9,777 nucleotides of DNA. Source: a virus. Its lineage: Duplodnaviria > Heunggongvirae > Uroviricota > Caudoviricetes. Below the pieces are notes generated by a model. It searched no databases. It saw only the letters and a list, made by a program, of their open reading frames with translations, and was not told the origin of the DNA. Position 1 is the first letter of the stretch. Every line of letters starts with the position of its first letter. The DNA lies in the IMG/VR virus record IMGVR_UViG_2728369554_000003; one strand, written 5' to 3'. Shown here piece after piece: positions 1,293-2,848 of this stretch. The position numbers and the translations under genes are program-made.

Positions 1293-2109
1293 TCAGCTAA
1301 TCGTGATGCCTGCAGTGGCTTTCTTCATCACAACAACCAGCAAATCGCTGATACTTGCTGTGGGATACCAACCATTTACCCACCATGCTGATACAGAAAA
1401 CTCCAGTGTCATTACGCCACTGCCTGCAGGCATATCAATAACACCCGTGTAAATCAGAGTATTATCCAGAGCCGTTCGGTTATAAATTTCAGCCCCGTTT
1501 TTCTTCACTATCAGGCGGCATGACGAATAAGTATCGCTATTCTCCCGTTCATGTCTGGCACCGCTAAAAGCCACCGCTGGAATAACAATTTGCCGGTCAA
1601 ACGGCTGATCGTCATAAACCCTGACGGTAATGGTCCCTGATGGCCACCGCTCCGGTGCTCGGGAGTCACGGGGGAAAGCTTTGCCCACTGTTTTAACGAG
1701 ATCGCCTTCAATCTGGTTCGCGGACAGTTTTCCCAGAACCCGGCAGTTCTCGTTAATCGTGACGTTGTTGAGCGTCCCGGAGTTCGCATTCACGTTACCG
1801 CTGATATCGGCATTTTTCGCCGTCAGCCGCCCGTCCGGTGTCAGGGAAAATGCCGGAGGATTACCGCCGCTGGTAATGGTGGGAGCCGTCAGATATTTCA
1901 GGAACACTTCATTCATAAATATCTGATCGCCCTGACCAACAAACATCGGCTTTGTATTGCCATTCGCAGGATTAATCATCGCAATCCTGTCCGCCGCCAG
2001 CAGCACCTGACTCTGCATACCGTCAGGGGTATTCTCAATACCGGCACCAATACCCGCGATATAAAGGCGTCCGTCCTGCATCTGCTGCAGCTTCACAGCC
2101 CACATGCTG
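1293..2109 (-). CDS. J: Host-specificity/central tail fiber protein J, C-terminal ~271 codons (allele 1) including the distal receptor-recognition region; 5' end at N gap
   Basis: Minus-strand frame is open from the gap to a TGA at 1293..1295 and reads [121 protein letters not shown]...[11 protein letters not shown]. This resembles the lambda J C-terminus; the J stop-to-lom start spacing of 67 bp is lambda-like. Confidence 0.8.
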
Positions 2110-2119
2110 NNNNNNNNNN
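2110..2119. other. Assembly gap (10 N)
   Basis: Run of 10 n. Confidence 0.99.
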
Positions 2120-2234
2120 GCCATTTACCAGCCATGCTGACACCGAAAACTCCAGTGTCATGTGACCGTGACCGGCAGGCATATCAATAACGCCACTGTA
2201 AATCAGCGTATTATCCAGCGCGGTACGGTTATAA
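2120..2234 (-). CDS. J: Orphan 115 bp fragment of the J distal C-terminus (allele 2), homologous to 1373..1486 at roughly 85% identity
   Basis: Minus-strand translation [38 protein letters not shown], compared with ...[38 protein letters not shown] in the 1293..2109 copy. Flanked by N gaps. Confidence 0.6.
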
Positions 2235-2244
2235 NNNNNNNNNN
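2235..2244. other. Assembly gap (10 N)
   Basis: Run of 10 n; flanks are not colinear (about 200 codons of J would be missing). Confidence 0.99.
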
Positions 2245-2848
2245 GTTCATGAATATCTGATTGCCCTGCGCCACAAACATCGGCGTTTCATTCCCGTTTG
2301 CCGGGTCAATAAATGCGATACGGTTAGCGGCAACCAGGAACTGGCTCAGTTTGCCTTCCTCCGTGTCCTCCATGCTGAGGCCAAGCCCCGCGACATAATG
2401 TTTGCCGTCTTTGGTCTGCTCAATTTTGACAGCCCACATGGCATTCCACTTATCACTGGCGTCCTTCCACTCTTTCGAAAACTCCTCCAGTCTGCTGGCG
2501 TTATCCTCCGTCAGCTCGACTTTTTCCAGCAGCTCCTTGCCGAGATGGGATTCGGTTATCTTGCCTTTGAAAAAATCCAGGTAACCTTCCGCATCATCGC
2601 TCGCCCGACCGACAGCCTCCACGAATGTCGATTTGCCGACGGTGTTCACACTGCGAACGTAAAAATAATAATCATGGCCCGGTTTGATATTGATACTGGC
2701 GGCTATCCAGTACAGCGCCGTGCCAAGATAACGCGCGCTGGTTTCAACCTGCCTGATATCCGCAATCCGATTTTCCGAGAACCAGAACTCAAACTGTACC
2801 GTCGGATCATAAACCGCAAGATGCGGCGTGGCGGTTATCTGAAAATAG
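2245..2848 (-). CDS. J: J internal fragment (allele 2): Ig/FN3-like repeat plus start of C-terminal region
   Basis: Minus-strand translation [201 protein letters not shown]. Its first ~90 codons duplicate the end of 2859..3508 with a few substitutions, and its last ~65 codons are a divergent homolog of the start of 1293..2109. Confidence 0.7.

Follow-up and report, generated by a model that had tools for sequence, protein, structure and literature searches.

Two J alleles on an E. coli-like draft scaffold very probably come from interleaved tail-module fragments of two or more lambdoid prophages

The window, the whole 9,777-base stretch of viral DNA analyzed here, is not continuous: seven runs of N divide it into eight contigs, A (1-505), B (761-920), C (931-2109), D (2120-2234), E (2245-2848), F (2859-3508), G (3519-7639) and H (7763-9777). 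Five of the runs are 10 N long (921-930, 2110-2119, 2235-2244, 2849-2858 and 3509-3518) and two are longer (506-760 and 7640-7762). The genes all lie on the minus strand and make up a lambdoid tail module consisting of the tape measure gene (contig H), M, L, K, I, J and lom, in an order that is colinear with lambda 13.1-19.6 kb and with a prophage of a complete E. coli genome described below. The features of the J and lom part, listed in the J reading direction, are the following.

3519..5306, minus strand: N-terminal 596 aa of J (hub domains), contig G; Pfam Phage-tail_3 and FNIII-A_GpJ
2860..3507, minus strand: J aa 600-815 (FNIII-1 and FNIII-2) of the backbone allele, allele 1, contig F; Pfam Ig_J and Ig_J_second 2-101
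2245..2847, minus strand: aa 726-926 of a second, lambda-like J allele (FNIII-2, alpha-helical shaft and top of the central straight fibre), contig E
2120..2233, minus strand: 38-aa fragment of the receptor-binding domain (RBD), J aa 1069-1106 of the 1131-aa type, a second RBD variant, contig D (115 nt)
1296..2108, minus strand: C-terminal 271 aa of allele 1 J, contig C, with the stop codon at 1293-1295
1911-2105, minus strand: fibre top of allele 1 (MWAVKLQQ...), contig C
1689-1910, minus strand: rest of the fibre of allele 1, contig C
1296-1688, minus strand: RBD of allele 1, contig C
931..1225, minus strand: 5' part of lom (98 aa) downstream of allele 1 J and colinear with lom of the same prophage, contig C; Pfam Ail_Lom 1-98
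761..919, minus strand: 53-aa fragment of the second J copy, aa 993-1045 (fibre end and RBD start), misplaced downstream of lom, contig B
1..504, minus strand: second lom allele (168 aa), cut at the window edge, contig A; Pfam Ail_Lom 20-187

Four references served for placing the contigs: lambda, phage PhiR55_1 and the prophages of two complete E. coli genomes. A single prophage, L003, which lies at dusA in NZ_AP017610.1, was colinear with contigs H, G, F and C; their identities to it were 99.85, 99.88, 99.69 and 99.58%, respectively, and the gaps between them corresponded to 160, 8 and 217 bp of L003. Contig G, which also holds I, K, L and part of M, matched L003 4005-8125, and contig F matched L003 8134-8783. 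On the other hand, contigs E, B, D and A matched the J-lom region of the other prophage, near ompT in NZ_CP070066.1 (L004), with identities of 99.67, 98.75, 100 and 99.8%, respectively. Contig A (L004 10346-10850) was also identical to the lom part of contig C at 217 of 238 nt.

The translated fragments gave the same assignment. Contig F (216/216 aa) and the J part of contig C (271/271 aa, residues 889-1159) were 100% identical to L003 gpJ (WP_096488192.1), and contigs E (200/201 aa), B (53/53) and D (38/38) were 99.5-100% identical to L004 gpJ (WP_001567092.1). The J part of contig C matched lambda at 151/270 aa and carried Phage_Tail_Tip 18-138 and Ig_GpJ_C 1-135, whereas contig E, with Ig_J_second 12-104 and Phage_Tail_Tip 2-83, matched lambda J at 195/201 aa and lambda 17679-18282 at 96.5% nt. 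Contig D (L004 10030-10144; Ig_GpJ_C profile 72-104) matched allele 1 at 34/38 aa and lambda at 11/33, and contig B (L004 9802-9961; Ig_GpJ_C 1-48) matched allele 1 at 52/53 aa. J of the window is not one uninterrupted reading frame of about 1130-1160 codons: it is split at 3509-3518, 2849-2858, 2235-2244 and 2110-2119, and the 217 bp with the long shaft of allele 1 (L003 8784-9000) are missing. Since genes 99.6-100% identical to it are intact in complete genomes, the break in J results from assembly.

A preliminary description of this DNA, based on the letters of the sequence, had reported two divergent versions of a J segment beginning with MWAVK, and the two versions do exist: MWAVKLQQ...QIFMN at 1911-2105 on contig C and MWAVKIEQ...QIFMN at 2245-2439 on contig E, both on the minus strand. 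The two 65-aa stretches are identical at 40/65 aa and 132/195 nt; of the codons that differ, 20 are synonymous and 25 change the residue, and each frame is open. The far C-terminus also differs as described, AGSGVM...WWVNGW in contig C vs. an AGHGHM...WLVNGW-type sequence in contig D. The version at 1293-2109 is indeed the non-lambda one, and that at 2245-2848 the lambda-like one. Complete E. coli genomes contain unbroken gpJ genes that match the two versions at 99.6% or more, which further showed that both are genuine J alleles, such as different lambdoid prophages carry.

In window fragments G, F, E and C, and likewise in the full-length surrogates described below, six Pfam families of gpJ (Phage-tail_3, FNIII-A_GpJ, Ig_J, Ig_J_second, Phage_Tail_Tip and Ig_GpJ_C) scored above the gathering scores. 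The same families and the gene order H-M-L-K-I-J-lom characterize lambda gpJ (P03749; PDB 8iyk, 8xcg-8xck), and residues 1-800 are 93-100% identical between lambda and the window, contig E being 97% identical to lambda J 726-926. Both alleles are thus ordinary members of the lambda gpJ tip attachment/central tail fibre family. Unlike lambda gpJ, however, both alleles diverge after about residue 972, with identities to lambda of 52-53/131 (about 40%) in the RBD and 76-77/168 after residue 964, and allele 1 departs from lambda also in its shaft, which is 28 aa longer, and in its fibre top. Compared with gpJ of the two complete genomes there is essentially no difference, except that the window genes are broken into contigs and interleaved. 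Kindred gpJ proteins also occur in phages PhiR55_1, PhiR47_1 (RBD 97.7% identical) and VT1-Sakai.

We then compared the two alleles domain by domain. Since the window holds them in fragments, the full-length alleles were represented by surrogates from outside the window, L003 gpJ (1159 aa) and L004 gpJ (1131 aa). The domain order follows the cryo-EM structure of gpJ, in which hub domains, FNIII-1, FNIII-2, a shaft made of alpha helices (end at 841-861), a beta-prism central straight fibre and an Ig-like RBD with loops L1-L4 succeed one another (PMC11101478); the Pfam boundaries on lambda were 845-972 for Phage_Tail_Tip (PF09327) and 1001-1132 for Ig_GpJ_C (PF12421, "C-terminal receptor binding domain"). 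The alleles were nearly identical in the hub domains (598/609), FNIII-1 (101/105) and FNIII-2 (95/103). In the linker and alpha-helical shaft (lambda 819-861), identity fell to 15/71, with a 28-aa indel, and in the fibre top (lambda 862-926, the MWAVK stretch) it was 40/65. The rest of the fibre (927-1000) was identical at 74/74 positions, the identity of 100% extending over residues 927-1012, and the RBD (1001-1132) at 122/131 (93%) on the full-length surrogates. On the window fragments themselves, the RBD of allele 1 in contig C was identical to contig B at 52/53 aa and to contig D at 34/38 aa.

Up to about residue 972, the L004-type allele resembles lambda (95-100%), and beyond this point both alleles are equally unlike lambda. 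On these alignments, the main allele difference is a swapped cassette comprising shaft and fibre top (lambda 819-926), in a lambda-like short form vs. a 28-aa-longer form. In metagenome contigs, the RBD variant of contig D occurs with both shaft types, the short one in L007 and L014 and the long one in L005, L009 and L012. The cassettes therefore reassort, and contigs E and D need not share one source gene. The pairing of these two contigs as a single allele, as the preliminary description had it, is plausible to the extent that both match gpJ of NZ_CP070066.1 (99.7 and 100%), and is weakened by the occurrence of the D variant with either upstream type.

Natural J homologues, mostly of prophages, have been surveyed on a large scale (Maddamsetti et al. 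2018, PMC6646904). In about 1,200 of them the specificity region 960-1132, which contains 97% of the substitutions in OmpF-using lambda, recombines as an independent module (PMC6646904). The window alleles resemble these enterobacterial prophage J mosaics, whose C-terminal module recombines independently, but differ from them in that the main allele difference lies upstream of 960-1132. The same survey noted extra indel peaks outside the specificity region, with "one indel nested within another," whose consequence was left unexplained (PMC6646904). The shaft/fibre-top cassette may correspond to these peaks.

It was proposed that the divergent MWAVK stretch belongs to the receptor-recognition part of J and that the alleles may therefore mark prophages aimed at different host receptors. 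The first part of this proposal does not hold, as the stretch corresponds to lambda J 862-926 within Phage_Tail_Tip, the top of the beta-prism fibre just after the shaft, and lies outside the RBD (1001-1132), outside the specificity region and upstream of the fusion point at residue 964. That fusion point is functionally defined: replacing only the part of J after residue 964 with the natural E. coli gpJ variants A8 and 1A2 switched lambda particles from LamB to OmpC (PMC11338833). Different receptors are not indicated by the RBDs either. Where they can be compared, they are of one non-lambda type, which gives no support to different receptors.

Nine RBD substitutions separate the alleles, at lambda-equivalent positions 1045, 1050, 1051, 1053, 1062, 1081, 1090, 1092 and 1103, several of them adjoining the lambda host-range hot spots (1048/1049, 1053, 1076/1077, 1083 and 1107; PMC6646904). 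Access to OmpF can take no more than four J substitutions in lambda (PMC6646904), and the A8 and 1A2 variants accept different OmpC variants (PMC11338833). These points favor different receptors. However, the most divergent block (862-926) is fibre and not RBD, residues 927-1012 are 100% identical between the alleles, and the RBDs, at 93% identity, form one class set apart from the classes at about 57, 40 and 37% found in phage records. Different receptor targets for the two alleles are therefore unlikely. The nine substitutions may instead fine-tune the specificity for receptor variants. A single-sequence AlphaFold2 model of the C-terminal 271 aa of allele 1 had a mean pLDDT of 45.3, too poor to place the nine substitutions.

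The RBD classes were defined by tblastn of allele 1 against phage records. A class with at least 90% identity comprised 57 records, including PhiR47_1, PPompW prophages and long-tailed Stx phages; other classes were those of phage 21, mEp460_4F5 and others (about 55-58%), lambda (about 40%), and mEp460 and 2851 (about 37%). In the searchable literature we found no receptor data for the class with at least 90% identity, including the PhiR phages. A lambda-type, LamB-binding RBD ("h-lambda" specificity) was considered and rejected because the specificity region is not close to that of lambda; at about 40% RBD identity, the use of LamB is not to be assumed.

The best PDB match to the C-terminal 271 aa of allele 1 was 9wca, "A8 gpJ 713" (E value, 2.3e-114), followed by lambda J (8xcj/8iyk, about 1e-92), and the A8 gpJ sequence used for comparison was taken from the PDB alignment (9wca). 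A literature search returned no paper describing 9wca/9wcb. A8 gpJ (9wca/9wcb; PMC11338833) resembles the window alleles in its last 24 residues, which are nearly identical and end in [S/A]TAGI[S/T]IS, and in A8 and 1A2, as in the window, the divergence from lambda starts near the 964 fusion site. On the other hand, the RBD of A8 gpJ is identical at 75/127 positions (59%) to both window RBDs, and the part after residue 964 at 107/164, so that A8 represents a different RBD class. Since the OmpC-binding A8 gpJ is the nearest characterized relative, our best guess, held with low to moderate confidence, is that the window RBD type would recognize a porin such as OmpC.

Why two alleles lie side by side was analyzed from the arrangement of the contigs. 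Both ranges carrying an MWAVK stretch, 1293..2109 and 2245..2848, are bounded by N runs (2110-2119, 2235-2244 and 2849-2858), and the two versions are therefore on separate scaffold contigs and not on one continuous DNA. Read in the direction of J, the contigs follow one another as G, F, E, D, C, B, A; contig D thus comes ahead of contig B, the reverse of their order on L004, and a lom start falls between the two. On the reference, the pairs E/F, E/C, D/C, B/C and A/C overlap, and the sequences flanking the N gaps are non-colinear or overlapping on every reference. Several Pfam positions are found twice, namely Ig_J_second 12-101 in contigs F and E, Phage_Tail_Tip 18-83 in E and C, and Ail_Lom 20-98 in C and A, and Ig_GpJ_C, whole in contig C, recurs partially in B (1-48) and D (72-104). 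Such duplicated profile positions make the order impossible for a single gene. The near-identical upstream FN3 repeat of the preliminary description was also accounted for: the similarity between 2577-2848 (contig E) and 2859-3130 (contig F) is real (250/272 nt), but the segments are not a tandem repeat: the contigs overlap, and each carries one and the same domain, FNIII-2 (J aa 726-815).

The positions of the contig ends were informative. Contig E ends at L004 9604, and a 167-nt run identical between the two prophage types starts at the next base (9605-9771); contig D ends at L004 10144, with a 100-nt exact run from 10145; contig C ends at L003 10179, with an exact run of at least 421 nt from 10180; and the break between contigs G and F falls inside a 126-nt run exactly common to both prophage types. 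On L003, the 167-nt and 100-nt runs correspond to 9200-9366 and 9740-9839. Contig ends at the edges of exactly shared runs are the signature of repeat-induced assembly breaks.

Taken together, these results indicate, with a probability of about 0.9, that the window is a gapped draft scaffold of an E. coli-like source with the tail modules of two or more lambdoid prophages, the J-lom fragments of the second module being interleaved into the first. Contigs H, G, F and C would hold nearly all of the first module, from the tape measure gene through M, L, K, I and a J of the 1159-aa type to lom. The other J-lom module would be exactly identical to it over long stretches, so that the assembler would have made small contigs only for the divergent patches E, B, D and A, and the scaffolder would then have placed these at the locus of the first module, separated by spacers of 10 N. 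Runs of this length resemble the minimum gap of a scaffolder; the assembler, the scaffolder and the purity of the sample (pure isolate or not) are what we infer here. The outcome would be the seeming tandem "alleles," an FN3 "repeat" that is not one, and an ORF of 421 aa (2203-3468), a chimera running through two gaps. There may be a third J copy in the source, contigs E and D/B/A coming from two different extra J copies.

The number of J loci in E. coli fits a second copy in one chromosome. Of the 5426 complete E. coli genomes, 4841 had a match to contig C, at up to 13 places per genome and at 2 in the median, and several J loci per E. coli genome are normal. Complete E. coli genomes hold roughly 15,000 J loci. 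It could be argued that the alleles come instead from two co-assembled strains, in a mixed culture or a metagenome bin, and not from two prophages of one chromosome. Contig D does have exact matches in human-gut metagenome contigs. However, several J loci per genome being the norm, and the two surrogate prophages occupying different attachment regions (dusA and near ompT) and thus being able to coexist, we consider co-assembly of two strains quite unlikely. Co-assembly would alter only the provenance of the second copy, not the identity of the feature.

It was also considered that the arrangement could be a real one, in which partial duplications of the J 3' end and lom lie in tandem within one prophage as alternative C-terminal cassettes for host-range switching. 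Direct repeats D1-D4 within 3.6 kb would agree with such an arrangement. Switching of the tail-fibre C-terminus exists in other phages, through the invertible segments of Mu and P1 and through DGRs. However, there is an N run at every junction and all repeat copies are N separated, the fragments are out of order and cut at arbitrary codons, and the contig ends fall at exact shared repeats. No tandem J/lom cassette arrangement was found in the complete genomes, phage records and metagenome contigs examined, and the natural contigs have one copy only. A collection of species-representative genomes lacked a 60-nt stretch of contig D. The exact sequence of contig D was present in 10 independent gap-free metagenome contigs, including human-gut ones, and in these 10 contigs, lambda, PhiR55_1 and both complete genomes, F/E occupies one place and is followed by B, D and A, with no duplication. 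Real tandem cassettes are thus highly improbable. Programmed tail-fibre diversification by invertible C-terminal cassettes or DGRs was likewise rejected: a search of positions 1-3600 gave no inverted repeats, the window ORFs include no recombinase or reverse transcriptase gene, and the locus is not continuous. Finally, that the two versions are sequencing-error variants of one sequence, an outcome set beforehand as refuting two alleles and favored by nothing besides their general homology, can practically be dismissed, because 32% of their nucleotides differ while the frames are intact and 20 of the codon differences are synonymous, and because independent complete genomes match each of them at 99.6% or above (contig C, 99.6%; contig E, 99.7%).

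The interleaving of prophage fragments has consequences for annotation. Both alleles are already known, a mosaic J with a modular C-terminus has been described in the literature, and the side-by-side layout is an assembly artefact. An annotation pipeline given this scaffold would report a 421-aa chimera as a "J" ORF, an FN3 duplication that does not exist and several orphan pieces of J and lom; assembly redundancy of this kind could pass for gene duplication or a diversification locus.

In lambda, the J trimer seals the tail tip, and the central fibre ends in the Ig-like RBD, whose loops insert into the outer-membrane porin. Binding is passed on through the beta-prism, and the alpha-helical shaft flips or partly refolds, so that the FNIII strings are released and the tip opens (PMC11101478). 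By homology with lambda, the window alleles would use the same tip-opening mechanism, and the cassette that differs between them, shaft and fibre top, would be the signal-transmitting part. As a tentative and rather doubtful idea, this cassette could be an independently reassorting module that tunes the transmission from binding to tip opening, or the reach of the tip, with the nine RBD substitutions fitting different porin variants. If this were true, two prophages in one host would keep non-redundant adsorption properties. Between J alleles that occur together, the difference can lie chiefly in the parts that transmit the signal, shaft and fibre top, and less in the RBD, and "C-terminal divergence of J" should therefore not be equated with a receptor switch.

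The exact receptor-binding domain (RBD) variant of fragment D, which probably belongs to the second J allele, was found in the gap-free metagenome contigs L005, L007, L009, L012 and L014, where it was paired with either a short lambda-like or a long shaft and fibre-top cassette, depending on the contig. The occurrence of the same RBD variant with either cassette indicates recombination, placed between about 930 and 1069 in lambda-J numbering. This interval falls within a block that is identical in both types.

As for J, the two alleles of lom represent two prophage copies.

1-505 and 931-1225, minus strand: lom (Ail/Lom outer-membrane beta-barrel), two allele fragments

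In the overlap of the two fragments, 217 of the 238 nt were identical, and the allele differences were mostly concentrated in a single short patch (about 10080-10160 of L003, the prophage next to dusA).

The tape measure gene was also analyzed.

7763-9664, minus strand: tape measure gene, contig H, 99.85% identical to the dusA prophage (NZ_AP017610.1)

Compared with lambda H, the tape measure gene of contig H had only a 60-nt match, and the adjoining contig G, which carries the M-L-K-I-J N-terminal region, was about 94% identical to lambda. There is a mosaic joint near the H/M boundary, and the 123-N gap, whose counterpart in the reference is 160 bp long, sits at the same place. Since the AT skew of the plus strand was strongly negative at 8250-9150 (-0.30 to -0.36), the coding strand is A-rich in this region, which encodes the Q/E/K/R-rich middle of the tape measure protein, probably a coiled-coil. 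The skew is a feature of composition only.

Between 2859 and 2109, the 217 bp equivalent to L003 8784-9000 were wholly absent from the window. These encode the longer alpha-helical shaft of allele 1, a 28-aa insertion relative to lambda that looks heptad-like in sequence. The place of the missing shaft was taken by contig E, from the other allele.

2203-3468, minus strand: chimeric J ORF, 421 aa, spanning two 10-N gaps (2849-2858 and 2235-2244)

This ORF joined contigs F and E to a portion of D and contained the FNIII-2 domain twice. It is a false, chimeric "J" protein, which would come out of a gene caller run here.
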